From Hypanus sabinus (Eukaryota): a stretch of DNA of 64,000 bases. The notes below the pieces were generated by a model. The model had not been told where the DNA came from. It saw only the letters and a list, made by a program, of their open reading frames with translations, and did not search any database. This document shows positions 1 through 42,473 of this stretch, piece by piece. The position numbers and the translations under genes are program-made. Where the stretch lies: positions 56,978,001 through 57,042,000 of the forward strand of contig NC_082719.1 in assembly GCF_030144855.1 (NCBI RefSeq), given 5' to 3'. Numbering within the stretch: the stretch's first letter is position 1; each line of letters opens with the position of its first letter.

Positions 1-3000
1 AGATGGCACTACCAAAGGCATGCAACAGCTTACTGGTAAATCGTAAGGCAAGAGATTTGACTAAAAACATTACTTATAAAATCTTTTCTTAAGCAAAATG
101 TAGTGAACTATCACCACAGACAATGAGGTGACAGCCAAAAGAAAGGGTAGTTTGGAGGATGACCTGTGCTGGGACATTGTGAGGCACAACAGGTTTGAGT
201 CAGGGTAGAAGACAGAGTTCATATTGTGGTTAGAAATGGACTGAGGGATTTTTAGTTGATGAGGAAGAGTTTTGATGCCCATCCACCTAACCTGGGTGCA
301 AGGTTGGATTACATCAGATGCTGTGGTGATATGTTGAGATTAAGAATGACTTCAGGCTGGGTGGCCCAAGTGTACTGTAGCACTGAGGTCCAGGTCCAAC
401 AGTGAGGTACTACCTGGTGCTTGGACACTGGCACAGATAGCCTGGCAGCCCTGTTCAGAACAGAGGCAAGGATCGAGCTGATTTTGCTCACTCTCGTGTG
501 ATGGTTCATGGTGCCAAGGCTGTGAACTGATCCGGCTGCTCTGAGTTTTTGCCCCACTAGTGTGATGAACTAGGACTGAGGCTTACTCTGGTGGCTTCAA
601 GTGTTGATCTGGAACTCAGCCTGGTTCTGAATGCTTTTGGCTTGATTCCATTATTTGCATGGTGTGTGTGTTTTCTCCCCTCTCCTTCTCTGCAATGGTT
701 TTTGCTCTGTCATTCTTTTAAATTAGGTTATTCATGTTTCTTGCTTTGTGCTATCTGCAAGCAGACCAAATTTCAAGGTATATAATTGATACAGTCTTTG
801 AGGATAACTTGGTTTGAATCTTTGAATCAAGCAAGATATTGCTGTCTACCTATGAACTACCTCAAAGGGTAGTGTATCTATATTAAATGCCTGAAGTAAG
901 GTAAGTTGCAGGGTTATGAGGGAAAGGGAAGTGCCTGCGATCAGCTTTCCCTTTCCTTCCCAGGCAGTCCCTCAGGACTGAGAACATCTTGTTTCCACGC
1001 TGATTTTCTGAGTATTTGGGTAGCTAATGAAGAGAATAAGATGAGCCTGAGAGGCTGATGTGCAGATGTTGCATAGTGGTGAGATGGCCCGATTCTTCTG
1101 TTGCTCACTTAGGGATCTGTATAAACTCAGGTGCATGGCCTCAGGTTTTTCAAATATATCCTTAAAGCTCACACACGTATCCTTCCAGTTAATTTGGAGG
1201 ATTTTGTAGGAATAGTTAGGGTAATGTTTTTGAAGTTCTATGTGTTAATTAATTTTTGTTGCCTGGGTTTCAGAAACATACAAGAGGGTTGAAATCATTG
1301 CTGCTTAGCAAATAGTGGATATTTTGCAAGGTCTGAGCTCCTGATCTTAAAATACAATATTTTTCATTCAAACAAAATGATTTGACAGATAAGTGGCGGT
1401 ATATTTCTATCTGCCCTTACCAAGATGATTTCAAACATTTTATCAAAAAAATGATTAATAGAATTAGTTTTCTTTAACAACCATTGCTTCCCACCCTGTC
1501 ATTGAAGTCTCTCAAAAGGTTTAATTTCATACCCATTGGGATAAGGACCAGGATATTTTCAGTGCAGGAGTCGAGATTATTCCCCACTTGCAGCTTTGAG
1601 GTGTTGGTGCAGATCTATTGATGTCTGCAGCAAGCTGGTTCGGTGTCATAAGGAGCAGACTTCTCTTGCATAATCAGAAAATGCCTTCTGAGCCCTTCTC
1701 TGCTATTCAGCTGGTACGTAGAATAGGCTCAATTTCTGAAGTATTATTCTGTGACATGCAAACAGTTAATGCAAACACCTTGATACGAAATTGTAAGTTA
1801 TACTGTAATAATGCCCACAGAAAAGGAATACTTAAGCTTAATTTTGGAGTACTCCATTGGCATGTTTTATTTAATTCTATCTAGTACTTTGAATATGCAT
1901 TCTCAATGAAACTTTTCTTTGTTTTTCTTTTTTTTTTACACTTTATTTCAGCATATATTTTAAATAATTAATCATGCATTTTACAATATTTTAAGTATTT
2001 TAGTCATACTTAATTCTTGAAAATTTTCCAAAATTTTTCAATTTCCATTCATCTTCATTTAAACAATGTAAAATAGCATAAGCTGTCAGAAGGCCAACAG
2101 GGTCGTTTGTGGCTCTGTACACCCAAGACCTATTTGCTCTTCATGCCACAAAATGTCAGTGTAGGACTAGACCTGACAGTGACTTGGAGACCAAGCCCAA
2201 CACAATTTGGCTCATTATACTGTTGCAGTACACATCCTCTTAATATGATTTGGTTCAAAAAGGTTGGCTGTCACATCTAGTTTCAGAATGGTTTCTGCAC
2301 ATTCAATCTCACAGGTCTAGAATCAGTACAAGCTGGGAGTTCAACAACCATTTATACAAATACAAATTGTCTTACAGTAAAACTGCAACAATATGTCCTT
2401 CCAAATCATTAGCCATAAACATAATTGCAACAAACAACATAAAACAAATCACTATTATTTAATTTACAGTTTTATTTTAAGTGTAAAATTTCATGCCTGA
2501 ATATAGAAATCCTGCCATCTAGAAATAATTTGTATATTGATGTCTATGTGATGCATCGATGCACCGTTCAATTTGTGAGAGACTGAGGAATGGCTAAGTA
2601 AGCATCCATAATTTTGACTGTGTACATTATGCCTTCACAATGATATTCCAGGACAGGAACAGGACCAATAAGCTCACATGGGAGTTTGCTGGTGCTGTAG
2701 GAGAAAATATACTCTGTTTTGGAAGAGAGTTGGAAGCCCGAAGGTAGAAAATAAAGGGAGAAAAGATGAGCTGGAAACCAAAGGTAAGGAGTCAGATAAG
2801 GAGTTATTCAGAAAGGAAAACAAATACATGTCCAGAGTTGATGGGGAAGGGGCAGAGTGTAAACCATAACACTGAACCTACAAATAGTGTCAGTCAGGAA
2901 AACTGATCAGATTACATTGAAGGCCAAAAAGCAACAAGGAACAGGAAATATTACAGACCTGATTAGGTCATTATAAGGATTTTAATGGGGTCAGTGAAAC

Positions 3001-4321
3001 TGTAAATAAAATAACCAGGTTTGCCTTACCACTCAGGAAGTCAATATATAGAATGTGGTAAATAAGGTTAATGAACCATATGCACATACGGTCACGAAGA
3101 AATATGCTGCAGTCGCAAAAGTAGAAACGTTGCTCAAATAGGAAAAGGATTGAGCAATAAACATTCTTGGATATAAAGTCATCAGGAGGGACATCAAAAT
3201 AAATGAGGAGTGTTACTGAATAGGGAGAAAGACAATGACAGCTATTTTGCTTAAAGCCAGTACAGTTGGGTGTATTCTGTAGGTTTCCAATTGATGGAGA
3301 TGGAAGAATAAATATGTAAAGATATTACAAAGGCCATTATAATGGGAGACCTTAATTGTACCAATGAAAATTGAGATGGTAACAATGTAAAGGGCTGAGA
3401 GAGTGAAGAATTTCTTAAGTATGTCCATAAAAAATGTACATCATTTGTTGGACTTTGTTTCTGGTCTAACAAGGAAAGAGGCATTGTTTGATGTGTTTTT
3501 AGGGAATGAGTTGAATCAAATGACTCAAATTTCAGCAGATGAAAATTTAGAAGTTCGTGATCATAGCATTTAGAGTTAGACTAGTTTTAGAAAAAAAAGC
3601 TGTAATTCCAAGGAAAAATAATTCATTGAAGTCAGTAAGTTTTAATGAGTGAGAATAAATACACCCAAATAAATTGGAACTAAAAATTGACAGGCAAAGT
3701 TGTAGCAGAACAATATTAGGTGCCAACATAATTGGGAGTCCAAATACTCAATAGGTATATAAAAAGTGAAATGGATATATACATTTGGGTGGCATTAAGA
3801 CAAAAATGGGAAATTACTTGCTAAGGCAGTGTCAATATACCAACTGAGTAGTTTGTATCTGTTTTTGGAGGGGATTTCCAAAATATTGTTGCAGGTATTA
3901 ACAGGTGAGACTTAAAATATGATGGTACGGAGGACATTAAAAGGATTGTTGCATATAAAGTAGGTAAGTCACCAGGAACAGATGGGGTACATCCTAAGAT
4001 TTTTCAAAAAGCACAGGAGGAAATTGTGAGGACGCTTACCATAAATTTGCAATGCTTTTTGTATTCAGGACTGGTGACTGAGGGCAGCAGACTAGCAACC
4101 TTTTGCTCTTGTTCAATAATGGGAACATGTCCAGCAACTACAAGCCAATCAGTTTCATCTCATTGATGCAACTGATATAGAAACATTAATCTGGGACAGA
4201 ATTCATAGTCACCTGGAGGGAAATGAATTAAGGCAATCCAGCCTACATTCGTCAATGGAAAATTATGTTTATCCAATTTGATACCATTTTCTGACGAAGT
4301 AACAATAGAGTTAATGAGGGT

Positions 4322-8290: not shown

Positions 8291-9171
8291 CTTGTGTTAC
8301 TTTTGTTGGTAAAATGTTGAGACTCAAAAGTAGTAATTGTTTTCCACTTCATTGTAATAGAATTGAAATAGAAGTCACTACATCTACAGCTGAAAAATGA
8401 TGGTGCAAGTTCTGTAAATAGTCACATAATGTTTTGTGAAGAGGGCCAGAATAACAATCTGCATTATTTAGAAACTCTACTTAAGTGATTGCGGAAATTC
8501 TGATCATTTGGAGAAGTCCTTTTCTCTATCATTCAAAACAAGCTTTGACGTTAGACTGGCCACAGCAGCCAGTGGTGAAACAACGACCACATAATTTCAC
8601 ATCACTTATACGAGGAAATCTGCATACTATTTCTTGTCTTACGAAGATCATCAGGTTACAGGTAATTTACAATTTTTAAAACAAAAATGATATTATTTAT
8701 TCGGTAAAGCTTTTTTTTTAAAATGTGTCTTGTTTATAGTTTGTGAGTAACAGAGATATTCACAGATATCTCAAAGCTTTTGATGGGATCGATCACCATT
8801 AAGCCTAAGTAAAAGTGCGCCAACTGTCTGTCAATGCATCTCCTGGAGTGAGGGTGGGACATGTCAGTCACAGCAAGAAGGGTCCACTCTCCACAGCACC
8901 TAATCGATCAGGAGCAGTGTAACTACAGAAAGGTATGCACCTGAAACTGAAGAGGGCTGGACAAATCCATCTCGCAGTCAGTTTAGTAAGAGACAGACTT
9001 CAAGACCCAGAGGACCAGGTTGATCTAATGCTATGATCCAATGATGACTGTGAGGCCAGATTCTGCTCTAACTCAGTCAATAATTTTACCCTGGCCCAAA
9101 AGCATAAGAAGCTGCAGAGAGACGAGGACACAGCTCAGCGCAGCACAGAAACCAGCCTTCCATCCATGGAT

Positions 9172-9397
9172 AAAAACACAAAATGCTGGCAGAACTCAGC
9201 AGGTCGGACAGCATCGATGGGAGGAGGTAGTGGTGCCGTTTCGGGCCGAAACCCTTCACCAGGAGTGCACTCATGATGAAGAGTTTCGGCCCGAAACATG
9301 GTCACTACGTCCTCTCATAGATGCTGCCTGGCCTGCTGAGTTCTGCCAGCATTTTGTGTTTTTACTTATTTCCAGCATCTGCAGATTCACTTGTATT
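9172..9397. mobile_element. Palindromic Penelope pseudo-LTR mini-element (226 bp) with a hammerhead-like motif on each strand
   Basis: Two ~95-bp arms are reverse complements centred on gagtgcactc (~9262-9271). Perfect 17-bp direct repeat gccttccatccatggat at 9155-9171 and 9398-9414. Confidence 0.85.
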
Positions 9398-9746
9398 GCC
9401 TTCCATCCATGGATTCTGTCAATACTTCTTGCTGCCTCAGTAAAGCAGTCAGTGTAATCAAATAACCCATATATCCTCCATTCTATTTTCTCTCCTTTTC
9501 CATTCACAGAACATACAAATGCCTAAAACCAGGTTCAAGTCTGTTTATAAGTCTATTGAAAAGTTTCCTTGTACAATAAGATGGATTCTTGACCTCATCA
9601 TCTACCTTGTTAAGGCCTTGCACCTTCTCTGTAACTATAATACTTTATTCTGAATCCTGCCATTTTCTCTTGTCCTTCCTGAATGCACTGTTGTAATGAA
9701 ACAAGCTGTGTGAATGGCATGGAAAACAACATTTTTTCATTGTACA

Positions 9747-10706
9747 AACACGAGGAAATCTGCAGATGCTGGAAATTCAAACAACAACACACTCAAAATG
9801 CTGGTGGAACACAGCAGGCCAGGCAGCATCTACAGGGAGAAGCGCTGTCGGCATTTCGGGCCGAGACCCTTCGTCAGGACTAACCGAAAGTAAAGATAGT
9901 AAGAGATTTGAAAGTAATGGGGGGAGGGGAAATGTGAAATGATAGGAGAAGACCGGAGGGGGTGGGATGAAGCTAAGAGTTGGAAAGGTGATTGGCGAAA
10001 GTGATACAGAGCTGGAGAAGGGAAAGGATCATGGGACGGGAGGCCTCAGGAGAAAGAAGTGGGGGGGGGGGGGAGCACCAGAGGGAGATGAAGAGCAGGC
10101 AAACAACTAAATATGTCAGGGATGGAGTAAGAAGGGGAGGAGGGGCATTAACAGAAGTTAGACAAGTCAATGTTCATGCCATCAGGTTGGAGGCTACCCA
10201 GCTGGTATATAAGGTGTTGTTCCTCCAACCTGAGTTTGGATTCATTTTGACAATAGAGGCCATAGATAGACATATCAGAATGGGAATGGGACGTGGAATT
10301 AAAATGTGTGGCCACTGGGAGATCCTGCTTTTTCTGGCAGGGCAGACGCAGCGTAGGTGTTCAGCGAAACGGTCTCCCAGTCTGCATCGGGTCTCACCAA
10401 TATATAAAAGGCCACACCGGGAGCACTGGATGCAGTATACCACACCAGCCGACTCACAGGTGAAGTGTCGCCTCACCTGGAAGGACTGTCTGGGGCCCTG
10501 AATGGTGGTGAGGGAGGAAGTGTAAGGGCAGGTGTAGCACTTGTTCCGTTTACAAGGATAAGTGCCAGGAGGGAGATCGGTGGGAAGGGATGGGGGGGGG
10601 GGACAAGTGGACAAGGGAGTCACGTAGGGAGCGATCCCTGCAAAAAGCAGGGGGGGGGGGGGGAGAGAAAAATGTGTTTGGTAGTGGGATCCCGTTGGAG
10701 GTGGCA
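9747..10706 (-). mobile_element. Penelope-like element 3' fragment: GIY-YIG endonuclease and pseudo-LTR
   Basis: ORF 10174-10740 contains CxxxKCYTCP...FTCESAGVVYCIQCSRCGLLYIGETRCRLGDRFAEH (PLE-type GIY-YIG with Cys motifs), frameshifted near 10330. pLTR at ~9747-9890. Confidence 0.92.
9845..9885 (-). ncRNA. Minimal type I hammerhead ribozyme motif (degenerate) in Penelope pLTR
   Basis: Minus strand reads agtc-CTGACGA-agggtctcggccc-GAAA-tgcc-gac. The CUGANGA and GAAA cores and stem II are present; the stem III/cleavage triplet deviates from ACGUC. Confidence 0.6.
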
Positions 10707-16908: not shown

Positions 16909-17493
16909 TGTACAATGTCCTGGGTATGTTACTCAAAATGGCCTCTTTGGTTTGTTACAAGTAGGAATGTTTCTTTGTCGGATAAGTGTTTCTCTCGCCA
17001 TTGTTTCACTTTAGAATGGCTGATATGGTAATTGTATTCATTTGTTAATCAATGGGGAATGTCATTGTGTCTTGTGATGCTGGGAACTTGGGGGAGGGGT
17101 TTTCGCGGGTTTTTTGGAGAGGCCGAGGAAGGTGGATGTGTGCTGGACTGCTCGTAAGACCACCGGGGTGGTCCCAGGTGCGACGGCCGGATGGGTCGAT
17201 TGGTTCTTTGATTGAGCTCCAACGAGTGCACTAAACAGACTGAACTTTGATAAGTTGGCGCCTTTTGTTTTTTTCCTTGTATATATATATATTGTATTGC
17301 CTACTATTTTTTTAATTTTAGTAAACTCTTTAAAGTGTATTTCATAACGGTATTTGTTGTGGGTTTGATACTGTTGGTGGGCGCGAGGCATTAACTCGAT
17401 TCTCACAGCACCTGCGTGTACAGGAGGTGGGTTGGAGAGTGGCTGGATCTCCTTTTCCCCTAGACATATACCAGCCTGTGGGTAAGGGTTACA
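16909..17493 (+). repeat. 5' LTR (585 bp)
   Basis: tgtacaatgtcc...gggttaca; near-identical to 23448-24065. Confidence 0.97.
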
Positions 17494-17497
17494 TTTG

Positions 17498-17516
17498 TGG
17501 GGTGCTCGTCCCGGAT
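17498..17516 (+). promoter_or_regulatory. Primer-binding site, tRNA-Pro-like
   Basis: TGGGGTGCTCGTCCCGGAT 4 nt after the LTR, versus the canonical Pro PBS TGGGGGCTCGTCCGGGAT (one insertion, one mismatch). Confidence 0.8.
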
Positions 17517-17560
17517 TGGATTGTCAGGGGCTGTGGAGTCGCGCAGGCAGCAGAGCGGAG

Positions 17561-18949
17561 ATGGACAGAGATAAGATTTTTTGTTGGTGCCAGTTTGAAG
17601 GTGTACCAGTACAGTACGCATGCGTAGTGAGCGGAGTGGATGTTCGAGTTTCGGGAGACGTGATAGTGCGGGGTTTAAGTTCGGTGAAGGGTATTGGGCA
17701 GGTAGAATTGGTAGCTAGACGGTGTGGTAAAGAGGTGGAGTCTAGCTGGGTGTTGGTTCGTACGAGTGCTGAAGTCAGGACGGTGGAACTGCAGGCGACG
17801 GTCAGTGTACCAGGGGAGAAGGGGCCGTGGGGGCTCCACTCCTACCAGGATGAGGCTGAGGAAACATCGGGGGAAGAGCTAGAGCTAGAGGTGGACCCCA
17901 GAGAGGTGCCCAGCACTAGTAAAGGGAGGTGGGAGGAGGGAGTTGTGACTAAGCCCCGCTCCCCAGGTAGGGTGGAAGCCTCGGAGCTGGCAGCCGCGCT
18001 TTACTCCCTGGTGGGGGTGGCCGAGAGGCCACGGCTGAAGCTGGAGATGTTCTCCGGAGCCAAGCCTACTCCGGATGGGGAGGTGGACTATGAGACCTGG
18101 ATCGAGCATACGTCTTTGATGTTAGAGGAGTGGCCAGGCTCAGAGGAGGAGAAGAGGCAGCGATTGGTGGGAAGTTTGAGGGGTTTAGCAGCCAAAACCG
18201 TCCGGGAGTTGAAAGCTGAGAAGCCTGGGGCCTCAGTGGAGGAATGCCTAGAAGTTTTGGAGGGAGCGTTTGGGTTGTCAGGGGAACCCTGGCTGCTTTT
18301 AGCAGAGTTTCAACGCCTGGAACAATGGAGAGGGGAAAAGCCCTCCGAGTACATATTTAGGATGGAGGGGATGCTCTCGGGGCTGCGGCGCCGGGGGGTA
18401 GTGAAGGCGACTGACGTGGCTAGCGTGAGGATGAGTCAGCTATTCAGTGGCTCTCTGGAGGAGGACAAGGTGGCGTGGACTATCCGGCAGGCTTATAGGA
18501 AAGGTCCCCCTCCATCCTTCGGGCAACTGATTAGAGAGGTGCGAGAGGAAGAGAGAGCGTTGGGGTGGAAAAGGGGCACGGGCCTACGGGAGCGATCCTC
18601 AGCGATACAGGAAGTGGTGGCTGAGTGGAGGAATGACAATCCCCCGGGGAGTAGGGAACCCCCTTTGGAGGGGAGGGACAGGGGAGGTACCTACTCTCAG
18701 GGGCGATCAGTGCAGTGGATTGGGAGCAGGAGCCATCCTGGGAGAGGAGGGGTGACCGGCAGTGTGTGCTTTAACTGTGGGAAAGAGGGGCATTTCAGGC
18801 GGGACTGTGGGCGGCTGAGGGTGTGCTATAGCTGTGGAGAGGAGGGTCACTTTAGGTGGGATTGTGAGAGACAAGGAGTCCCGCGGAGGACAAGCCCCCC
18901 TATGACTAAAAAGGGAGAGATGTCGGGAAACTTAGGAGAGGCTCAGTGA
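17561..18949 (+). CDS. gag: Gag, PNMA (paraneoplastic Ma)-like capsid protein with two CCHC zinc knuckles, 462 aa, uninterrupted
   Basis: First ATG at 17561 (MDRDKIFCWC). PNMA-like capsid motifs KLEMFSGAKPTPDGEVDYETWIEH...EKRQRLVGSLRG and QWRGEKPSEYIFRME. Knuckles CFNCGKEGHFRRDC and CYSCGEEGHFRWDC. Confidence 0.9.
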   Translation: MDRDKIFCWCQFEGVPVQYACVVSGVDVRVSGDVIVRGLSSVKGIGQVELVARRCGKEVESSWVLVRTSAEVRTVELQATVSVPGEKGPWGLHSYQDEAEETSGEELELEVDPREVPSTSKGRWEEGVVTKPRSPGRVEASELAAALYSLVGVAERPRLKLEMFSGAKPTPDGEVDYETWIEHTSLMLEEWPGSEEEKRQRLVGSLRGLAAKTVRELKAEKPGASVEECLEVLEGAFGLSGEPWLLLAEFQRLEQWRGEKPSEYIFRMEGMLSGLRRRGVVKATDVASVRMSQLFSGSLEEDKVAWTIRQAYRKGPPPSFGQLIREVREEERALGWKRGTGLRERSSAIQEVVAEWRNDNPPGSREPPLEGRDRGGTYSQGRSVQWIGSRSHPGRGGVTGSVCFNCGKEGHFRRDCGRLRVCYSCGEEGHFRWDCERQGVPRRTSPPMTKKGEMSGNLGEAQ

Positions 18950-18985
18950 GGGAACGGACTGGAGCCTCTGGAGGAACACGTTCCC
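18925..18985 (+). promoter_or_regulatory. -1 programmed ribosomal frameshift signal: G GGA AAC plus H-type pseudoknot
   Basis: Heptamer 18925-18931 in correct phase with gag; 5-nt spacer; stem 1 AGAGGCTCAGT (18937-18947) / ACTGGAGCCTCT (18958-18969); stem 2 GGGAACG (18950-18956) / CGTTCCC (18979-18985). Confidence 0.85.
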
Positions 18986-21900
18986 AGATATCAGCCGGAA
19001 GACCACCGGGTGCCCACGCCTCCGGATGGGCTGGTAGGACCCCGTGCCAGTGTGGGTCTACGGATAGAGGGAATTTACGCAAAAGCTGTTCTTGATACGG
19101 GATCGCAGGTGACCTTATTGTACCGGTCTTTCTACAATCAATATCTAAAGCATTTGCCCGTAACACCATTTGCCGCCCTGCAGATTTGGGGTGTGAGCGA
19201 GGGTGACTACCCGTACGATGGGTACCTATTGGTGAGATTGGAGTTCTCGGAGGGCGATGTGGGAGTGTCGGAAGCTATTGAGACGTTGGTGTTGGTGTGT
19301 CCTGACCCGGTGGAAACCGGTGGTGCTGCCCTCCTGGTGGGGACTAACTCCCCAGTTGTGCGACGGCTCCTGGGAGCTTGTAAGGAGAAAGGGGGGGGAA
19401 GACTTTCTGGAGACCCTCTCGGTGCATCCAGTGTTTCGAGCAGTGTTCGCAGAAGGGGTTGCCTCCCAAGGGCTGGACCCGGAGTGTAAACGAGGGACGG
19501 TGTGGTGTATGCAGGCGAGGCCCAAGGTGATCCGACCAGGGGAGGTAGCACTAGTGATGGGGACCCCCAGATTCCCAGGAGTGCCGACGGGAGAAGCCCT
19601 GTTAGTAGACATCCCAGACGATCTTGAAGGGGAGACCCGATTTCCGGCGGGGGCGCTGGTGAGGCCCAAAGTGCAGAGACCAGGGGTGGTACATGCGAGG
19701 CGTATAGCTATAAGTGTCAGGAACACCACGGCAAGAGAAATCACCTTTAAGAGGGGAATGCCACTGGCACATCTGTTCCCGGTGACGGTAATGTCTAGCG
19801 CACCAGTGAGGACCCCTAACGGGGAGGGATCGGAGCATCGAAGGGAGCTGACCGCTGAAGCCTTTAACTTCGGGGATTCCCCTGCGTCGCCGGAGTGGAA
19901 ACATTGGCTAGTGGAGAAGATGCTGAAGATGGAAACTGTTTTTTCTCGGGGCGAGTTTGATGTTGGCTGCGCCAAAAGCACTCGCCACACCATCCGGGTG
20001 ACGGAGGACACCCCGTTCCGAGAGAGATCCCGGCGGCTGGCTCTGGCAGATGTTGAGGGTGTGTGACAGCACTTGTGCAAGTTGAAGGAGGCAGGAATCA
20101 TAGCTGAGTCTCAAAGTCCCTATGCGTCCCCAATAGTGGTGGCACGGAAGAAGAATGGGTGAGTGCGCATGTGTGTTGACTACAGGACATTGAATCGGCG
20201 AACTGTCCCTGATCAATATACTGTCCCAAGAGTCGAGGATGCGTTGGCCTGCCTGAGCGGTGCGAAGTGGTTCAGTGTGCTGGATTTAAGAAGTGGGTAT
20301 TACCAGATCCCGATGAGTGCGGCCGATAAAGAGAAGACCGCTTTTACCTGCCCGCTGGGGTTCTTTCAGTTCGAACGAATGCCCCAAGGCATATCGGGTG
20401 CCCCAGCCACCTTCCAGAGGCTCATGGAGAGAACTGTGGGGGATATGAATCTGTTGGAGGTGCTGGTGTACCTGGACGATTTGATAGTGTTTGGATCGAC
20501 TTTGGAGGAACATGAGGAGAGGCTGTTGAAGGTGTTGGGCCGGCTTAATGAAGAAGGGTTGAAGCTTTCCCTGGACAAATGCCAGTTCTGCAAGTCGTCG
20601 GTTAACTACATTGGCCATATCATTTTGCGAGAGGGAGTGGCTACTGATCCAACCAAGATAGAGGCCGTGACCACCTGGCCGAGACCCCAGAAAGTGGGTG
20701 CTCTGTGCTCATTTTTGGGGTTCTGTGGGTATTACCGGCGATTTGTGAAAGGATAAGCCAAAGTGTGTCACCCGTTGACTCAGCTGTTGTGTGGCTATCC
20801 CCCGGTGGGGAAGAAGAGGACGGGGAACCAGAGGCAGGACGCTGGAGGATACTGGAACCCGGCGGAACCTTTTGGCTTGAGATGGGATGATCAATGTGAA
20901 GAGGCGTTCCGATCTTTGAAAAGGGCACTGACCCAGGCCCCGGTGTTGGCTTTTGCCGATCCCCAGAAGCCATATGTGCTGCACACGGATGCCAGCCGAG
21001 AGGGTCTCGGGGCTGTTCTGTACCAGGAGCATGGCAAAGCATTGAGGCCGGTAGCCTTTGTCAGCCGAAGCTTGTCGCCATCGGAGAGAAACTATCCCAC
21101 TCACAAGTTGGAGTTCCTGGCGCTGAAGTGGGCGGTGGTGGACAAGCTGGGCGATTACCTGTACAGAGCCAAGTTTGAGGTGAGAACGGATAACAATCCT
21201 CTCACTTATATTTTGACTTCGGCGAAGCTGGATGCCACAGGACATCGGTGGCTGGCGGCCTTGTCGGTATATGATTTCAGCCTGAGGTACCGCCCCGGAA
21301 GCAAGAATGTCGATGCGGATGCATTGTCTTGTCGGGAGCCGGGGGAGGAGGAGAGGGACGAGGAGTGGGAGAGTGTCCCTGCCCCTGGAGTGAAGGCGAT
21401 GTGTCAGTTTGTTATCACCGTGAAGACTGAGGGAAGAGGGAGGCTGGAACGGGCCGTGGACCATTTGGGGGTTTTTGACGATGCCATACCCCTAGTTTAC
21501 TGTGACCTGACTGCTCTGGGGACTAAACAGTTGCCGGAACTGAGTCCGGGGGAAGTGGCAACTGCTCAGCAAAATGACCCGGGCATTGGCACAGTGTGGA
21601 GAGCGGTCGAGAAGGGGGATGGGGCGTTGGCTGAGAAGGCGAAACACCCATGCGTGCCTCTGTTGTTGAAGGAGTGGTCTCGGTTGAAGTTAAAGAACAA
21701 AATCTTGTACCGGGTAACGACGCATCCGGACCAACCCCGCTGTTGGCAACTGGTCCTGCCGGAGGAGTATCGCCAGGCTGTACTCCAGGCCTTACATGAT
21801 GATTCTGGACACTTGGGGGTGGAAAAGACATATGGATTGCTCAAAGACCGGTTCTACTGGCCCCGGATGAGGGGGGACATCGAAGAATGCTGTAGGGGAT

Positions 21901-23426
21901 GCCGTCGTTGCATCCAGAGGAAGACCCTGCCAGCGTTGACGGCTCCACTGTCGCACTTGCAGAGTGCGGGACCTCTGGACCTGGTATGTATGGATTTCCT
22001 GTCGATTGAGCCTGACACCAGCAACACCGCGAATGTATTAGTCATCACCGATCATTACACTCGCTATGCTCAGGCATTTCCCACCAAGGATCAGAAGGCG
22101 ACGACAGTGGCGAAAGTGTTATGGGAGAAGTACTTTGTGCATTACGGCCTTCCCAGGCGAATCCATAGTGATCAGGGGCGGGACTTTGAGAGCCGCCTTA
22201 TCCAGGAATTACTGACTATGCTTGGGGTTGAGAAATCCAGGACTACCCCTTACCACCCACAGGGAGATCCTCAGCCAGAGAGATTCAACAGGACCCTGTT
22301 GGATATGCTCGGGACGCTGGAGATTGGGCAGAAAAGCAGGTGGAGTCGTCATATTGGACAACTGGTTCACTGTTACAATTGTACTCGCAATGATGCTACA
22401 GGGTATTCGCCCTATTATCTGATGTTCGTGCGGGAAGCGAGGTTGCCCATTGACGTGTGTTTTGGAGGTGGAGTGGGTGAATTTCCCGGGAAGTCCCATT
22501 TAAAGTACGTGTCCGACATGAAGAGGGAGTTACAGCGGGCGTACGAGTTGGCCGAGGCGGCGGCTACCAAACAAAATCAGAAGAATAAGATGCGGTATGA
22601 TCGAAAGGTGAAGTTTGTACAATTATTACCGGGCGACCGGGTCCTTTTACGGAATTTGGGACTCCCTGGTAAGCACAAGTTGGCAGATCGATGGGCGGCC
22701 AGCCCCTATGTAATAGAGAGCCAGATGCCGAACCTGCCCGTTTACCGGGTGAAACCTGAGGATGGAAAAGGGCCTATCAAGGTACTCCATAGGAATCACC
22801 TGCTGCCACTGGGTCAAGCGGTGCAGGTGGATAAGGAGCCCGAGTGGGAGGTTACGCCCAGTACAAGGACTCTGCGAGGGCGCGGAGAACGGGAAGAGCC
22901 CGCTGCTGAAGAGCGGGGACGGGTCCCTCACCCGGGAATGGCTACCGATTCAGAGGAGGACGACTCAGATGAGTGGGTCCTGTTCCCATTCGCTGGTGCT
23001 CCAGTACCAGGAGAGGAGGCTCCTGGCCCTTCCCATACTGAATTGGGTGAGAGGAGGGAAGGTCTTGAGGGTCAGATGGAGAGGCAGCCTACATTGGTGG
23101 GAGAGAGGGTGGAACCCGAGCGTGAGCCAGAGAGATCTCAGGTGAGGGAGGACCCCTGTGAGGAAGGGCGTGCGGGTCTGTCAGGTAGACCTGGGGTGTC
23201 CGAGACAGTGGGTTCGCAGGTGACGAGGGAGCCCAGTGGGGCAGAAGGGGTATGGAGATCTCAGAGGATTAGGCGCCCCCCGGAGCGGTTGACTTATGTG
23301 GTACCGGGAGAACCGAGTGTGATTTCTACTGCTCTGGGTAGTTATGTCACTGCTTTCTGCACCTGGGTTGGGTTTTGTATGTTGCAAGAAGCTTTGGGGA
23401 CCTCTAGTAATGCCATGAGGGGATGA
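18931..23426 (+). pseudogene. pol: Pol polyprotein (aspartic protease, RT, RNase H, integrase), disrupted in PR-RT
   Basis: PR LDTGSQVT; RT RMCVDYRTLN, LDLRSGYYQI, MPQG, YLDD; RH TDAS, TDN; IN HDDSGH..CRRC, MDF, SDQG, PER. Extra G in the G8 run 19391-19398; stops ending at 20066, 20162 and 20756. 20763-23426 is open for 887 aa. Confidence 0.95.
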
Positions 23427-23437
23427 CATTTGCTGGT

Positions 23438-23447
23438 GGGGAGAGAA
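23438..23447 (+). promoter_or_regulatory. Polypurine tract
   Basis: GGGGAGAGAA directly abutting the 3' LTR. Confidence 0.85.
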
Positions 23448-24065
23448 TGTACAATGTCCTGGGTATGTTACTCAAAATGGCCTCTTTGGTTTGTTACAGG
23501 TAGGAATGTTTCTTTGTCGGATAAGTGTTTCTCTCGCCGTTGTTTCACTTTAGAATGGCTGATATGGTAATTGCATTCATTTGTTAATCAATGGGGAATG
23601 TCATTGTGTCTTGTGATGCTGGGAACTTGGGGGAGGGGTTTTCGCGGGTTTTTTGGAGAGGCCGAGGAAGACGCTGAGGAAGGTGGACGTGTGCTGGACT
23701 GCTCGTAAGACCACCGGGGTGGTCCCAGGTGCGACGGCCGGATGGGTCGATTGGTTCGTTGATTGAGCTCCAACGAGTGCACTAAACAGACTGAACTTTG
23801 ATAAGTTGGCGCCTTTTGTTTTTTTCCTTGTACGTATATATATATATATATATATATATATTGTATTGCCTACTATTTTTTTTAATTTTAGTAAACTCTT
23901 TAAAGTGTATTTCATAACGGTATTTGTTGTGGGTTTGATACTGTTGGCGGGCGCGAGGCATTAACTCGATTCTCACAGCACCTGCGTGTACGGGAGGTGG
24001 GTTGGAGAGTGGCTGGATCTCCTTTTTCCCCTAGACATATACCAGCCTGTTGGGTAAGGGTTACA
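23448..24065 (+). repeat. 3' LTR (618 bp)
   Basis: Copy of the 5' LTR with an extra 12 bp (gacgctgaggaa) and a longer (TA)n. Confidence 0.97.
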
Positions 24066-34265: not shown

Positions 34266-34363
34266 ATATTTAAATTAAAATTAAATAGGATTCTCTGCAT
34301 TGGTATAATTAGAAAAGGATGATTTTAATAGTGGCAACTATCACTGGTGAATTTAGAATGGGG

Positions 34364-35088
34364 TGTGTTAGTTGCACTGAGGCAAGGTTTTTTTTTCTTT
34401 TTCAATCTTTTTATTGAGTTTCATATAAATATATAAAAAAACATAACATAATAATGAATAGGTTATGAATACAATAGAATTGAAATTACATTAATAATAA
34501 GATAATAATATCCTATTAAACATCAACAAAAAAAAGTACATTAATCAATCAAGTCTATATAACTATATATGAAAAAAAACAAAAATAATCATCAAAAGAA
34601 AAAGAAAAAAAATTGGAAAATATATAAAAGAGAATATATATTGAAAAAAAACAATAAACTACTAAACTAAACTAATGAGGCAAGGGTTAACATAATATAT
34701 ATGCCAAGATTGAGTTCAGACAACCCAGGCAAGAAACGTCTTTGAAGAGTATAGCTTCTCTTTGCATGGTCTGAAGACAAGATCAGCAATCCAAAACACA
34801 GGCAACTGAGGGACAACTGTTTTACTAACTTTAAAGCATCATTCATTGTCATCTTGCAGTTTCCATTACTTTTAACACTTCTGTGAATGGTGATTTATCT
34901 TACAAATAAGGAATACAAATATATCAAATTTACCAAAAGGTCAATATCATTACTGATGATAATAATCACGTTGTTTTGTTCAAACTTCAGAAGAGCATGC
35001 AGACAGAGGCCATATTGCTGTCCTTGTGCACAAAGTAAAGAATGTGTGAGTAGTGTTCTGGGTCCATTTAGCTTATTTTATTATCAGA
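34364..35088 (+). repeat. ERV 5' LTR (interrupted at 34388-34675)
   Basis: Collinear with 40968-41458 (gcaagggttaac, gtctttgaa, agggacaa, aatttaccaaa, acttcagaa blocks). Confidence 0.85.
34388..34675 (-). mobile_element. Poly(A)-tailed retroposon 3' end (L1-like) inserted in the ERV LTR
   Basis: T-run and tttatt(g) at left; very AT-rich; 10-bp TSD tgaggcaagg (34378-34387 / 34676-34685). Confidence 0.75.
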
Positions 35089-36388
35089 ATCAGATTGAAT
35101 ATCACCAGCATATGTTGTGAAAATCATTTTGGAGCAGCAGCACAATTGCAATACACAATAACTTTAAAAACTGTAATTTACAGTAAATTATCATTGAAGT
35201 ATCAGTAAAGAACCACTGAGTGTGTGCCTTCAGGCTCTTGTACCTCCTCACTGATGGCAGCAAAGAGAAAAGAGCATGTCCTGCATAATGGAGATCCTTA
35301 ACGTTGGATACCTCCTTTTTGAGGCATTGCTCCTTCTGGATGTACTGGACACTGGGAAGGCTAGTGCTCATAATGAAGCTGATTCTGTTCACCACTTTCA
35401 ATTCTGTGGAGTGCCCCTCCCACCAGAATGTGATGCAGCTGGTTAAAACTCTCCTCCACAGTACACCTGTAGAAATTTGAGAGTGTCACTGCTGACATGC
35501 CAAACCTCTACAAATTCCTAATGACGCAGAATTGCTTTGAAACTGCATCAAGCTGCTAGGCCCAGCATAGATCCTCAGAGACGCTGACACCCAGGAACAT
35601 TAAATTCCTCGCTCTTTCCACTACTGATCTCTCAATGAGGACTGGTATCTGTACTCTCATCTTACCCTTCTTGAAGTCCACAATCAATTTATTAGTCTTA
35701 CTGCCATTGAGAGCAAAGTTGGTGTTGTGACACCACTCAACCAGCAGATCTCTCTCTCTCTCCTGTATTCCTTCTCGTCATCATCTGAAATTCTGCCAAC
35801 AATTTGTGCCATCAATAATAGTTGTGTCATCAGTAAATTTATTTATGGCATTTGAGCTATGTCTAACCACACAGCTATGGGTGTAGAGAGAGTAGAGCAG
35901 TGGGCTAAGCACACATCCCTGAGGTGTGCTAGTGTTAATTATCAGTGAGGTGAAGTTGTTATTTCCAATCTGCACAGACTGTGGCCTTTCAGTGAGGATC
36001 CAGATGCAGAAGCCATTACAGAGGCCCAAGTTTTGGAACTTTTTGATGAGAATCATAGAAATGATTGTATTAAACATTGAGTTGTAGTTAATGAATGGCA
36101 GCCTGGCACAAATATTGGTAATGTCCTGGTGATCCAAGGCCATGTTAAGATCCAATGAGATCACATCAGCTGTACACCTATTGTGATGATAGGCAAATTG
36201 TAGTGGGTCTAGGTCCTCACTTAGGCAGGAGTTGATTCTAGCCTCTCAAAGCATTTCATCACCATAGATGTGAGAGCTAATGGACGACAGACACTCACCT
36301 TCTTCTTCTTGGGCACTGGTATGATTTTTGTCCATTTGAAGCAGGTGGAAACTTCTGAATGTAGAAGTGAGAGACTGAAAATGTCTTG
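35085..36388 (-). mobile_element. Rex1/Babar-like LINE fragment inserted between ERV LTR and PBS
   Basis: ORF 35781-36164: NYNSMFNTI, PQGCVLSPLLYSLYTH, KFTDDTT. (atcaga)n tail at left. Confidence 0.85.
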
Positions 36389-36396
36389 GAGTTACT

Positions 36397-36414
36397 TGAA
36401 GGTTCTACCAAAAT
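36397..36414 (+). promoter_or_regulatory. ERV primer-binding site, tRNA-Gln-like
   Basis: TGAAGGTTCTACCAAAAT versus TGGAGGTTCCACCGAGAT: 14/18, all mismatches transitions. Positioned where the LTR would end once the LINE is removed. Confidence 0.65.
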
Positions 36415-36759
36415 GGCTAAACTTTCACTTCATTATACAGGAGAAAGGAATTCAGTCCTGGTAGCTGATCAGTCCAAATCTGATCAGCACATATCTGAGC
36501 AGGGGACCAAGTCTGGTGCTGAAACACAAATGTCCTTTTGTGTCGAGAGGTCAAGGTTCACCAACACCTTAGTTGCAGACATAGAAAGCTGCAGCATTAA
36601 AAAGGGAGGGAGGGGGAGAGTCTCTCTCTCTCCCTCTCTCTTCTCTCCCCCCCTCCCCCACCCCCAGCATAGAGGTCCCCTGTCTTAGGCCTCTAAAGAA
36701 CTCTGTGGTGGCATGCATGTTTCTATATTATGCACTAGAAAACACTATGCTGAGACGTA

Positions 36760-37890
36760 TATTGTATGGGTGGAACTGACTACATAAGTGCCTGCAGACA
36801 TTGTTAGAGAAAGGAAAGTATGAGAAGACTGTTGGGTAGCCTGTGATTGTTCAATGTAGATGTTAAATGTAAAAATAGTTAGATGAATCCTTTAAAAAAA
36901 AGCAGAAAGTGTGTAAAATTTAAAAGATACAAAGAACAAGCAAAGGATAATAGTGTCTACACCTGTCTTTTAAAAAGAAACAATTAGCACTGAAGTCTGA
37001 AGATGAACTAGATGCTATACCCCTGCCTTCCCCAAGCATGGCTTCAACAAAGCCCACAGCAAGTACTGCCTCTTGAGTACTTGGTAAGGCCGGCATCAGC
37101 TAACACCCTGCCACAGGTAGTGGGTTCCCAGTAACACTACGAGAGATGAGAGGCTGAAAGTGCAGAGGGAATGAGTGAAATGTTGATTTAAATGTACTTT
37201 GAACTGATCTAGTAGGGGCTCTCAGAAAATGTTTCCCTTGCACTGTTGATTGGCATTTTGACAAGAAACAATGATGTCTTAATAAATGCTCTTGTAAATA
37301 AGTTGCAACTTAGGTTAAAGCAAAAACATACTGTTACTTTTGTGAGATGAGAGAGTTAAGTAAAATTGAGAGTAGTTTACAATATTGCCAAAAGCAATTA
37401 CGACATCAAAGGATTAAAAGGATGAAAGGGGAATGATGACATAATATCCCGGGCTACTCAATTATAGACAGGGGGCAATTTACGCTATGCTCTATAAGTA
37501 TTGCGATATCTGCACTATACAATTTTAATATTATTTTTACTTATAGCTTTGTTTTGTATTTAACCAAACTGACGGGGGCTATTTTTGGCTAATCATTGCC
37601 AGATTAGCTTCTCCTTAAAATTTCACTGTAAACTTTGGTTTTACCATGACCTGCTTTTCACACATGTGGATCATGTGACCCACTTCTGACTGGTAGCTTT
37701 ATTTTGAACAGCATAGACACATTTTAGATACTGCTATTATAAATGCACAATTTTATAGTTCTTTGATTCACATCATCAACACATAGAAATGTGATGGTGG
37801 ACACTGTAGAATAAAACATAGGGATATCTACAAAGGGTATGTTTTTGTTTGTGGACAGCCTGGCCACTGGGCTTGAAGATGCCCTCAGAC
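36760..37890 (+). pseudogene. gag: ERV gag remnant
   Basis: Only the NC knuckle is clear: C-F-V-C-G-Q-P-G-H-W-A-*-R-C-P at ~37840-37885 with one extra T. The 5' boundary is a guess. Confidence 0.55.
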
Positions 37891-38189
37891 CAAGGAAACT
37901 TTAATAACAGATTCCACACCTCCACTAACACCAGCGCCATAGATAACGCAATTTACTTTAAATAATCCGTTCCCAGAGTGTACTTAAGAACTTGTACAAT
38001 TTTAATTTTGCCCACGGCACCTGATGTAAGCCTATACATTATGTTCTTTGGCCTTTTCTCCTGAACAGATACTGGGAAACATCCTACAGAATATGTGGTA
38101 CTCATTTAGTAATTGAGGCACAACTACCCTCCCAAACAAGAGAAAAACTGCAGATGCTGGAAATCCAAGCAACACATACAAACTGATTA

Positions 38190-39420
38190 TTGTTACAGCA
38201 CATGATAAAGGATTATTATGGAAACTACATGGGTTTCTCATCTCTTCAGAGTTCCAATAAACTACAGTGAATTAAGTATGAACCTTCTCTGCTTTTCAAT
38301 TACTGCAATTATTATAAACTATACAACTCATAGTAATGGAAAGGATGAAATAACTAGGGCAAACAAACAAGCTGACTCCTTTGCTAAGGCAGCAACAGCA
38401 GAACTTTATGACCATGTAACTCTCCAGTGTGATCAGGCTGGCAATACTTTCCAAATTCTTTGATGAACAGGTACAATTTCCACCGGCTGAAAATACTTTA
38501 TGGACTAAAGCACATTATGTGGAAGGCTACAAAGGATGATGGATAAAATTAAAATGACGGGCTCTTGACCATAGAACAAAAAGTAGCAATGAACAATATG
38601 ATTTGTTAGAGACACAAGAGCGAAGAACACTGCTGGTATCTGCTGCCTTGAGGCCCCACCCTCAGGAGGATAGGAGTGCATCTCCAATTTCTGCAATTAT
38701 CTAGATGTATGGGTTATGATTATGCATTTGTTATTGTGTTTGTTATCTTCATGGGCAAAAGATTATCCAACTCAGAGAAATGATGCTGTAACTTCATAAT
38801 TTTTTTACTATGAAAATTTATTCCTCAGTTTAGGATCCTGGAGAAAATCTCCAGTGATAACGGGCTTCACTTTACAGGTAAATTGGCAAAAGCCTTACAG
38901 TGTAAACACCATTTCACCTGCCCTTATTACCCTCAATCTTGCAGGGCAGCTGAAAGACAGAACGGGTCCCTGAAAAGCAGGTTAGCTAAACTGAGCAATG
39001 AAACCAAGCTGAAGTGACCAGAGGTGCTTCCACTGGCCCTCATAACAATTCACTACCCTCCAAACTGCATAACAGACCTATCTCCACATGCGATGTTTCT
39101 GGGACTTCCCGTACATTTACCAGTCACTCCCCTTTTTAATTAAACAGTTGGACTCTATACAAGTGAATGCATGTTGCAGTACTGTACAACACTAACACAA
39201 GCTCTTAAACGTTCCCATGGACAGAAACTTGAAGCCTAGAAGATCGTGCTGGCTGCAGAGTGCACACATACCATCGAGGAGATTAGGCACTGATAAAAGC
39301 CTATGGTCAAAAGAATTTCATGGAGCCCCACTGGGAAGGTCTATTCCAAGTGCTGCTGATCACATATACTGCTTTGAAGGTCTAAAGAAAGCCATCGTAG
39401 ATGGACACATTGCTTTGTTA
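38190..39420 (+). pseudogene. pol: ERV pol remnant: RNase H C-terminus and integrase
   Basis: AHDKGLLWKLHGFL; AIII..H...DEITRANKQADSFAKAA; FIPQFRILEKISSDNGLHFTG; CPYYPQSCRAAERQNGSLKSRLAKL..ETKLK*PEVLPLAL; EPHWEGLFQVLLITYTALK. Confidence 0.88.
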
Positions 39421-39529
39421 AGCCAGAGATGCTACCGGACTAGGGAACAGGTGGCCCAAACAACCTTGATGATAGGGACTAATTAGCCGAATTTGATCAT
39501 TGTTACTTTGACCTTAAGTGATCACTATG

Positions 39530-40935
39530 CATTATGCTTCAGAAATTTGGTGCTTCTGCCTTTTGGCTAAGTACAGAATTACTTCATGGCACCAACACTC
39601 CTAACACTTTATTTTAGTTATGAATATGTGTTGTGTTCTATCCTTTCAAGTCCTAGGGGGCCTAGAGAAGGAGGCTTGCCATAGCATTTCTACCCCTGAA
39701 AGGTGGTGAGTTTGATTTGTTTTTTTAATTTGAAAAATGAAACCGAAACTGTAAAGGGAGCAGGGAAGTGCATTGCCCATAGGAATGAAATGGCAATGCA
39801 ACTTTTTTGAGGAATGGTATCAACCGAGCTACAATTATTGCATAATCCCCCTGCTCTGAAGCTGATTTGTGGGGATAGAGGTGAAGTATGTTATTGTAAC
39901 CATCAAGAGATGGGACCAGACTTGGGTAACTGTAGTATGTACAGTGCCTATACCAGTGGTGACCCTCTGAATCCTGTAAACAATATTTACTGGGGGTATG
40001 TGGCTACCAGGGGTACACTTTCTAAAATGGGATCAAATCCCATTTGGCCTATGTAAGGCCATAGATGTACACCTGCTTACTCTCTTTCTGCATCTTACTA
40101 CATGGGGCTGCTATCAAAGGACTATGGAGATTGCACTTTTCTAGATTGTAGTGTTCTCTTCTAGGAACCTCCCAGGCTGGCTAGTGAAAGCATTAACGTG
40201 GCCTCAGCACCACTGCAGAAACCGACTACCAATTAGGCTATTAATCACATTTTTTCTGGAAAAAGATCACTGCAATTAATAGCCTGTAACTTCCCTTTTG
40301 GTGTTGAGATTTTGAATCGCCTGTATGACCTGACATTTTTGCGGAGTGAACTGAAGTTTCAAAGACGCAGGATGGTTGTGGCATGGCTTGTACAGGCCAT
40401 ATCAAGATGTCAGGGCCAAGGCCCGATCATGAGGAGTGAGCCAATGCTTGGCTATTGCTGGAGAGACTTGGAGTTCATTTGAAGTGGCAGAACAGAGGTG
40501 AGGTAAGCCAGTCCATCAGTGATATTACTGTCAAAATGTTGGCAATCTGCTCTATGGCCCTACAAAAATCAACTAGCACCAGACTTTTTGTTGTCTAAAA
40601 GATGGTACTTGTGCCATTATTCAAAAGTGTGTTGCACGTACATCCCCAAAACACTGAAGAACATTACTGATTTAGCTGTGCATACCCAGCTGGAAGCTCT
40701 TAAGTTTAGGAAGACTGGACAGGAGTAACATGTGTTTCTATCTTCACCATGGGGACCATTTAGTTGATATCACTCTTTATTAGTAGCTGTAATATTCATT
40801 TTATTCTCTTGTCTGAGATCTCTCTGGAGCAGTGGCCCAGAGAGCAGTTGTCTTCATCATGATCAAACAGCCAACTGTCCCTGATGAAACCATCACAAAG
40901 TTTCAGACACTCTGTGCTATTGAAGTTCAGTAGAA
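39530..40935 (+). pseudogene. env: ERV env remnant (gamma-type TM)
   Basis: At ~40554-40648, across frameshifts: MALQ-NQLAPDFLLSK-DGTCAIIQK-CCTYIP (immunosuppressive domain and CX6CC). Hydrophobic anchor at ~40765-40815. Confidence 0.8.
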
Positions 40936-40967
40936 TTTGTGTTGTCCTCTATAGGACAAAAAGGGAG

Positions 40968-41458
40968 TGTGCACGTTGCAGTAAAGCAAGGGTTAACTTA
41001 TTATCCAGGTAAGGATAGAATGAAAATGGAGTGCAGACAGCCCAAGCAAGAAAGGTCTTTGAATAGCATAGCTTCCCTTTGCATATGAGAGGTCTGGAGG
41101 TGAGCTGAACAATCCAAGGTACACAAAACAAACAAAGGGACAATTGCTTCAACTAACTTCAAAGTATCATCGGTTGTCAGCTTGTAGTTTCTATTGAGTT
41201 TAGCACTTCTGTTGTTAATGGTGATTGACCATGCAAGCAAGGAGTTCCAACATACTCAATTTACCAAATAGTCAATATCCATAACTGATAAGCTAGTTCT
41301 GTATAAAAAAAATAACATTTTTTGTTCTGTTCAGACTTCAGAACGGTACTGTGACAGGGGCCATGCTGCTCTCCTTGAGTACAAGGAAAATAAAGTAGGT
41401 TTGAGTTGTAAGCATTTGTGTGTTTTGGGCCCAGTTATTTCATTTGTCAGCAATGACA
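40968..41458 (+). repeat. ERV 3' LTR (491 bp) preceded by PPT
   Basis: Purine tract aggacaaaaagggag then TGTG...; TATAAAA at ~41302; AATAAA at ~41389; ends ...tgaCA. Confidence 0.87.
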
Positions 41459-42473
41459 GGGGAAGGAAGTCAACAGTTGGAGAGAACAAAAGCATGACAG
41501 GTTGTAAGAGGCAAATTTCAAAATGAACAGAGGTCTTCTTGGCATTGTTCAGGAACCATCTTCAAGCCTTTCATTATCTAACACCTTTTGGGGCAGTGAC
41601 ATTGATGATTGGAACAGATAGGAAATATAGAACATATTGCCATCGAGGTATGAGGGATTATACCAATATGTTTAAACTGCTCATTTTCATATCCATTTTA
41701 AATCATTTTAACACGTCCATAGGAGAATCTATAGAAATACGCAAAGTATTGTGAACTGATTTGGTCAGGCAAATGGGAACAAAAAATTAAAAAATTCCAG
41801 AAGGTAAACTGAACAACTTGATTTTTTTTCCCCAAGATTGACAGTTATATGAATCCTAAGCAATAGGACAGAACAATTTTGAAATTAAGCTTGACAATTT
41901 AAAATGTATACCCAGATATTGAACTTATGGCCACAAGTCCAATGACTGCACAATATCTGGGCATCATTTTTTAAAATTGTAAAATGTGTACTATCACAAA
42001 TAGAACAATAAAGTTGATATATCCCCATTTCAGAAATTGTTATTGTGATTTACTCCCTTGAAGGGATGTTAAAGGCTGATTTGCAAATTTCTGAGCTATT
42101 GCTATTGGCTGGTCTCATGGTAACAAACATTCATACATCAACCTATGGGAAATGCATCAGTTGTAATAAATCTTTTATATCCAAATTTGTGAACTCCATC
42201 CATCCCAAACTTCATTTTTGATTGTGAGCCAAGAGAAATATGTCTTCCCTATTTTTCCTATTTGGGCCCATCATAAATTTGTTCACTTCAAGTCATCGAT
42301 TAGTAACTGCTTTTTCAAAATAACAATCCAGTCTATCCAATTTTTATTTATTGCTACTATTTGAAGTCTTAGTGACACTGTTGCAAATTTAACCAGTACC
42401 CTTCGTGTAATATGGCAATTAGAACTATATAATCATACTCACTAAAGTGTAGTATACACTTCTAGTATATTTG

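Follow-up and report, generated by a model that had tools for sequence, protein, structure and literature searches.

The element at positions 34364-41458 of the window, the whole stretch of 64,000 nucleotides of the ray Hypanus sabinus analysed here (NC_082719.1, positions 56,978,001 to 57,042,000), is a real but very old and broken provirus. It is very probably a defunct member of a class I endogenous retrovirus (ERV) family without protease (PR) or reverse transcriptase (RT), a family which is likely to have spread in one ancient burst by means of helper retrovirus particles. The copies of this family share the loss of PR and RT, retain their cis signals, are dispersed and are of similar age. 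The picture implied by the first-pass annotation, made from the letters of the window, was that of a single cryptic full provirus, and this was not borne out; the element is one of more than 100 loci.

Shared loss of protease and reverse transcriptase

PR and RT are absent between gag and ribonuclease H (RNase H) in the window, a loss which the first-pass annotation did not mention, and the element does not qualify as an autonomous provirus. The distance from zinc knuckle to RNase H is 390 nt in the window and was 572 nt or less in 43 of the 57 other copies which have both anchors (21/28 from 40 loci examined, 17/20 from 40 loci chosen on gag alone, and 5/9 from 18 loci chosen on RNase H and integrase (IN)). 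The distances cluster near 430 nt. Thirteen more family loci (L078-L089 and L097) were mapped outside this measurement. Based on arithmetic from mapped positions, the distance is about 2.6-2.7 kb in two RT-bearing class I loci of the same genome, L101 and L105.

Using a Pol profile from 31 database proteins and tblastn with the turtle Pol protein P0208, no PR or RT was found in register in 111 fetched family stretches (53 + 40 + 18, the near-identical duplicates L026 and L062 included). With these same tests RT was picked up in seven other degenerate class I loci, namely L100-L102, L105, L106, L115 and L117. The retained pol begins near residue 597-630 of P0208, which is the end of the tether. 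In 13 uninterrupted copies the pairwise identity stays at 0.68-0.82 without a drop across the junction, which indicates that the deletion happened in the master element.

A number of candidate matches were rejected. RT matches in or near L026, L039, L040, L067, L071, L074, L080, L173, L185 and L191 are on the opposite strand or outside the junction, that of L187 (6.5 bits) lies within gag, and the extra tether sequence of L209 came from an alignment which passed through a common repeat. The spacers of L173 and L175 (2.2 and 2.6 kb) were about the right size for PR and RT but hold a young mobile element and an inverted long terminal repeat (LTR) with duplicated pieces, respectively, and gave no RT match. 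The mobile element, of about 1.8 kb (1383-3163 in L173), is 96-97% identical among L173, L070 and L079, again with no RT match.

Many dispersed copies thus carry the same deletion while their cis signals are intact, as in a non-autonomous family. Paired LTRs (TG...CA), a tRNA primer-binding site (PBS) and a polypurine tract (PPT) are all present, although the 5' LTR of the window copy has lost its terminal CA. The PBS had been read as Gln-like; comparison with the 3' ends of the host genome's own tRNA-Gln genes bears this out, the match rising from that of the window copy (Table 1) to 17/18 in copy L061. Rfam and ARAGORN gave no match in the window stretches scanned. A Gln-like PBS was found in none of nine class I loci screened, including L090, L100 and L106.

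DNA searches with the LTR, RNase H-env and gag regions were scored for the best 40 of 1373, 2038 and 274 first-look candidates, respectively, and all 40 matched in each case; these counts are lower bounds. A protein search with the gag region gave 119 matches among the best 150 scored, also a lower bound, which places the family above 100 loci. The DNA tree (23 rows) is star-like, with tips of 0.12-0.23 (median 0.17) and inner branches of at most 0.03 except for one duplicate pair. The Kimura two-parameter (K2P) divergence between LTRs was 0.24-0.30 in six other copies, those in which 200 or more LTR columns could be aligned. Taken together, the shape of the tree and the similar LTR divergences point to one old burst. 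L026 and L062, located on the same contig about 360 kb apart, are likely the result of a segmental duplication.

The insertion was also looked for in other organisms. In contigs of sequencing runs X1 and X2 (organisms A and B, respectively), which span the 3' LTR together with its flank, 30/1225 and 36/1226 letters differ; internal pieces were found at about 97% identity in runs X3, X4 and X8. X8 overlaps the 3' junction by less than 31 letters and was not counted among the bridging runs, and X9 and X10 supplied short pieces only. Paralogs reach at most 78% identity, and the insertion is therefore orthologous in these other organisms; its age is roughly 9-11 times that of the split from organisms A and B. 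A rate of 2.2e-10 per year was assumed for the elephant shark (PMC4422223), and shark mutation rates are low, at 7e-10 per generation (PMC10587355). Applied to the window LTRs, a mammalian rate (2.2e-9) corresponds to about 60 million years (My), and given the low shark rates the age is likely greater than this. The rate of 2.2e-10 would give about 590 My, which was rejected as an implausible date; it is older than the crown cartilaginous fishes. The great age first suggested for the element is thus supported by both LTR divergence and orthology.

Mode of spread

Based on these observations, about 2.2 kb of pro-pol would have been deleted from a master element, so that the end of gag came to lie beside the end of the tether and RNase H, while its LTRs, tRNA-Gln PBS and PPT were retained in cis. 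Its RNA would have been packaged and reverse-transcribed by a helper, which would have provided PR, RT and probably IN, yielding 4-bp duplications. A later sub-lineage may then have dropped the CX6CC motif and membrane anchor of the transmembrane protein (TM) and become the majority, the window copy representing the longer TM form. The codon positions of IN carry no signal (no third-position excess, p 0.21, 21 copies, a test of low power with a star tree), and so it is most likely that RNase H, IN and env were carried along passively. Spread by trans-complementation has been described for a D-type ERVK in cattle (PMC10924933).

Several results weigh against this reading. The 30 best RT loci, from a search crowded by young families, share no DNA similarity with the family, and no helper was found. 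Searches of the gag region for a capsid by Pfam, PDB and tblastx gave no match. Longer spacers between knuckle and RNase H occur in 14 copies; the ten examined were mostly known common repeats, but in L068 and L071 the greater part of the spacer had no match, and the remaining four copies were screened for PR and RT only. The genome searches scored the top 40-150 candidates, from which rare full-length members could escape. To these is added the topology test of IN given below.

An alternative, which we regard as unlikely, is that the RT-less master still encoded functional Gag, RNase H, IN or Env and took no more than PR and RT from another virus. RNase H is kept from the upstream linker on, the layout of IN is whole, and the younger, unrelated class I loci L098, L108, L109 and L113 also begin pol at the tether or RNase H. 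Against this stand the first cysteine of the knuckle, unseen in the copies read, the TM anchor, absent from most copies, and, with little power, the codon positions of IN. In addition, IN needs to be cleaved from Pol by PR. It is far less probable that full proviruses lost PR and RT after insertion, separately in each copy. Post-insertion deletions are common in the copies and some spacers are only 60-360 nt, but the clustered distances, the alignment of the junction across copies and the retention of RT in no copy run counter to such a history, and the common junction largely refutes it.

Class I affinities and the envelope region

The RNase H motif noted at first pass was confirmed by alignment of the window to residues 712-779 of P0208 (E 3.7e-6); no Pfam match to RNase H was obtained in the window. 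The window integrase matched rve_3 (E 0.017), the integrase of PFV (E 8e-7) and MLVIN_C (E 1.6e-7), the last being above cut-off in L028 as well and identifying a C-terminal domain of the murine leukaemia virus (MLV) type. The integrase and its type of C-terminus therefore stand as first read, the window motif (PHWEGLFQVLL) being a degenerate version of the PRWEGPFQVLL type. A homologue search with the window IN piece gave no match. Between copies of the family, IN identity is 65-78% (22 rows).

In an IN tree of 39 rows, taken from the 75 rows of a first tree, the nine family rows form a clade supported at 100/100. Their nearest neighbours (support 90/83) are the turtle protein P0123 and loci L090, L100 and L106 of the same genome. 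Four Gypsy rows are split from all retroviral rows, the family included, at 100/100; however, the approximately unbiased (AU) test failed to reject a clade of family plus Gypsy (p 0.105), and the IN tree alone is therefore not decisive. The case for class I is completed by MLVIN_C, the TM and the 4-bp target-site duplication (TSD), which is a class I ERV trait (PMC4299795 Table 1) and is found in the window as GGGG. The element is thus supported as a class I (gamma/epsilon-like) ERV, as had been proposed. A Gypsy-type LTR retrotransposon with a captured env is the least credible origin: the AU result and a best PDB match to foamy-virus rather than gamma IN favour it, but the 100/100 separation of Gypsy in the IN tree, the MLVIN_C match, a closest Pol of turtle origin that has both tether and RNase H, and the 4-bp TSD oppose it.

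We infer the label "epsilon-like" from the host and the neighbouring sequences. It agrees with the reported distribution of the gamma-like clade Jin, restricted to amniotes, and of clade Mu, found across jawed vertebrates (PMC6001957). The host had been taken for a cartilaginous fish, which is supported, but the accompanying remark that ERVs are sparsely characterised in such fish was overstated. Many class I families are present in this genome, and ERVs with gamma-type Env have been reported in six cartilaginous fish, three of them with more than 500 copies (10.1101/2021.11.23.469661). One young class I family of many copies (L091-L094, L110 and L111) has PR, RT, tether, RNase H and IN and long open frames. 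A ray as host is indicated by another ERV of the genome, which shares 94% identity with a protein of Hemitrygon akajei.

Alignment of the window TM with Env-like proteins of sharks and rays (E 2.7e-11) confirms the env reading with an immunosuppressive domain (ISD), CX6CC and a gamma-type TM, although the CX6CC is degenerate and split across two frames. Pfam gave no match to the window TM or to that of L075, and the assignment is made via homology to TLV_coat proteins. Env-like proteins of sawfish, sharks and stingray (P0126, P0127, P0129, P0132, P0134 and P0136), all of which carry TLV_coat, are 34-47% identical in TM to the L075 frame; these are annotated open frames, whereas the env of the family is broken in the copies read. 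Among copies with both anchors, the distance from ISD to PPT was 124-169 nt in 22/26 and 382-451 nt in 4/26, two of the latter having been picked for their TM match. At 375 nt the window copy belongs to the minority which keeps the CX6CC region and anchor. The short TM form also appears in a contig of run X4.

The window copy and related elements

The features of the window copy are collected in Table 1. Its LTRs are identical at 313/401 columns of a global alignment (78%, K2P 0.262), and the alignment is significant, with a score of 336 against a maximum of 9.4 across 200 shuffles. The figure of about 70% first estimated by eye agrees with the 70% obtained by blastn with gaps. The GGGG duplications and the PPT were present as described, and the 1.3-kb displacement of the PBS by a long interspersed element (LINE) was confirmed. 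About 8 nt of the 5' LTR, including the terminal CA, are gone at the LINE junction. Of 23 LTR loci, about 11 were judged by eye to be solo LTRs with two legible ends; three of these had exact 4-bp duplications, two matched at 3/4 positions, and the others were unmatched.

Table 1. Coordinates of the provirus, its coding remnants and its insertions in the window
Feature	Position	Strand	Basis or remark
5' TSD, GGGG	34360..34363	+	direct reading; 4-bp duplications also beside solo LTRs L123, L125 and L129
5' LTR	34364..35082	+	TG start; split by A-rich insert; LTR alignment and LTR-end/PBS context of other copies
A/T-rich insert within 5' LTR	34388..34675	-	10-bp duplication at 34378-34387 and 34676-34685
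5'-truncated LINE between LTR and PBS	35083..36388	-	RVT_1 E 4.6e-9
tRNA-Gln PBS	36397..36414	+	14/18 matches
Likely gag, degenerate, zinc knuckle at end	36750..37900	+	zf-CCHC; stop-poor phase
Approximate family-wide junction, about 2.2 kb missing (PR, RT, most of tether)	37900..37975	+	spacing, alignment, Pol profile
Degenerate RNase H	37975..38400	+	tblastn with P0208
SINE-head fragment inside RNase H (SINE, short interspersed element)	38133..38182		recurs at window 9745-9786 and in many loci
Degenerate integrase	38400..39450	+	core about 38670-39250; MLV-type C-terminal domain 39263-39382
Likely env surface protein and TM start, degenerate	39450..40230	+	common to family copies; weak tblastn to shark/ray Env
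Piece of unrelated dispersed repeat of about 900 nt	40230..40505	+	not env; missing from other family copies
Gamma-type TM: heptad repeat, ISD, CX6CC, membrane anchor region	40506..40865	+	Env homology
PPT	40953..40967	+	direct reading
3' LTR, TG...CA	40968..41458	+	LTR alignment
3' TSD, GGGG	41459..41462	+	direct reading

The copy appears to have decayed after insertion and to have gathered four insertions. That within the 5' LTR is likely a poly(A)-tailed retro-insert; no further copy of it was found among the fetched loci. Contigs of runs X1, X2 and X4 cease to match at 34678, an indirect hint that this insert is absent there. Copies similar to the LINE were found in L034, L043 and L087. 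The piece upstream of the TM was considered as an env fusion peptide and rejected, as it belongs to the separate dispersed repeat.

One stop-poor phase runs over 36760-37380 in 13 copies, and by its position the gag region would include a putative capsid. The single CCHC knuckle of the first-pass annotation was recovered at about 37847-37888 (zf-CCHC E 3e-4), but in a degenerate state, with the first cysteine absent from the window frame; this cysteine was not seen in L030, L058, L075 and L080 either. In L080 (oriented 2550-3320), a diverged relative, knuckle and RNase H meet at the same junction, but the capsid-like part lies about 300 nt closer to the knuckle; the additional sequence of the main family falls at about 37480-37780 of the window.

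Elsewhere in the window, a young Gypsy-type LTR element (16909-24065, LTRs 93.5% identical), which served as outgroup, has a PNMA-like gag containing two knuckles, frames for PR and RT, and an RNase H-IN frame of 889 aa. The window also holds a 99% inverted pair (26235-26347/26809-26921), a palindromic stretch (9171-9364) and diverged direct repeats (49342-49776/50252-50683 and 7080-7658/50470-51051).

By description, the family resembles the epsilon-like class I ERVs CmiERV lineages II/III (PMC4422223) and CoeERV1-1 (PMC4255032) in layout, 4-bp TSD, gamma-type TM and MLV-type IN C-terminus. The nearest Pol found comes from turtles (P0123, 38% identical to L078), echoing the turtle and crocodile affinity reported for CoeERV1-1 (PMC4255032). 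The family differs in the lack of PR or RT in any copy and in an LTR divergence of 0.26 against 0.024-0.033 for the CmiERVs (PMC4422223). A common internal deletion, high copy number and spread in trans, inferred or shown, are shared with cattle ERVK[2-1-LTR] D-type (PMC10924933), HERV-H RTVLH2-like elements (PMC6629862), MER41E-int (PMC11905727) and ETn/MusD (PMC10089650). In contrast to these mammalian families, the present one has a ray host, has had PR and RT removed with RNase H, IN and env spared, and is extinct with no autonomous partner found. Searches of open-access text by architecture or host turned up no account of this family, Repbase and Dfam being outside the search, and the lineage may already be listed in the supplements of 10.1101/2021.11.23.469661.

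Loci L098, L108, L109 and L113 have LTRs 90-94% identical, differing pol start points and no DNA-level kinship with the family, and L112, which is close to both L109 and L113, still has some of PR-RT together with another deletion. Database proteins P0003, P0013, P0029, P0035, P0057, P0078 and P0095, of about 640-685 aa, have RNase H and IN domains only; these could be RT-less elements of other hosts or mere frame fragments. It is conceivable, though rather doubtful, that the loss of PR and RT with RNase H, IN and env kept is a recurrent, selected parasitic design in ray class I ERVs, its retained genes working in cis, represented by this family of presumed Mesozoic age and by the younger L098, L108, L109 and L113. 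If so, RT-based ERV surveys would miss such families entirely.

Since deleted ERVs of mammals are already known to be complemented in trans, the surprise is modest. Even so, surveys that begin from RT would overlook a family of this kind, with its more than 100 loci. Its orthologs in other organisms, together with concordant LTR ages, could be of use in calibrating the neutral rate in rays, which is poorly known, and in dating an old retroviral invasion.

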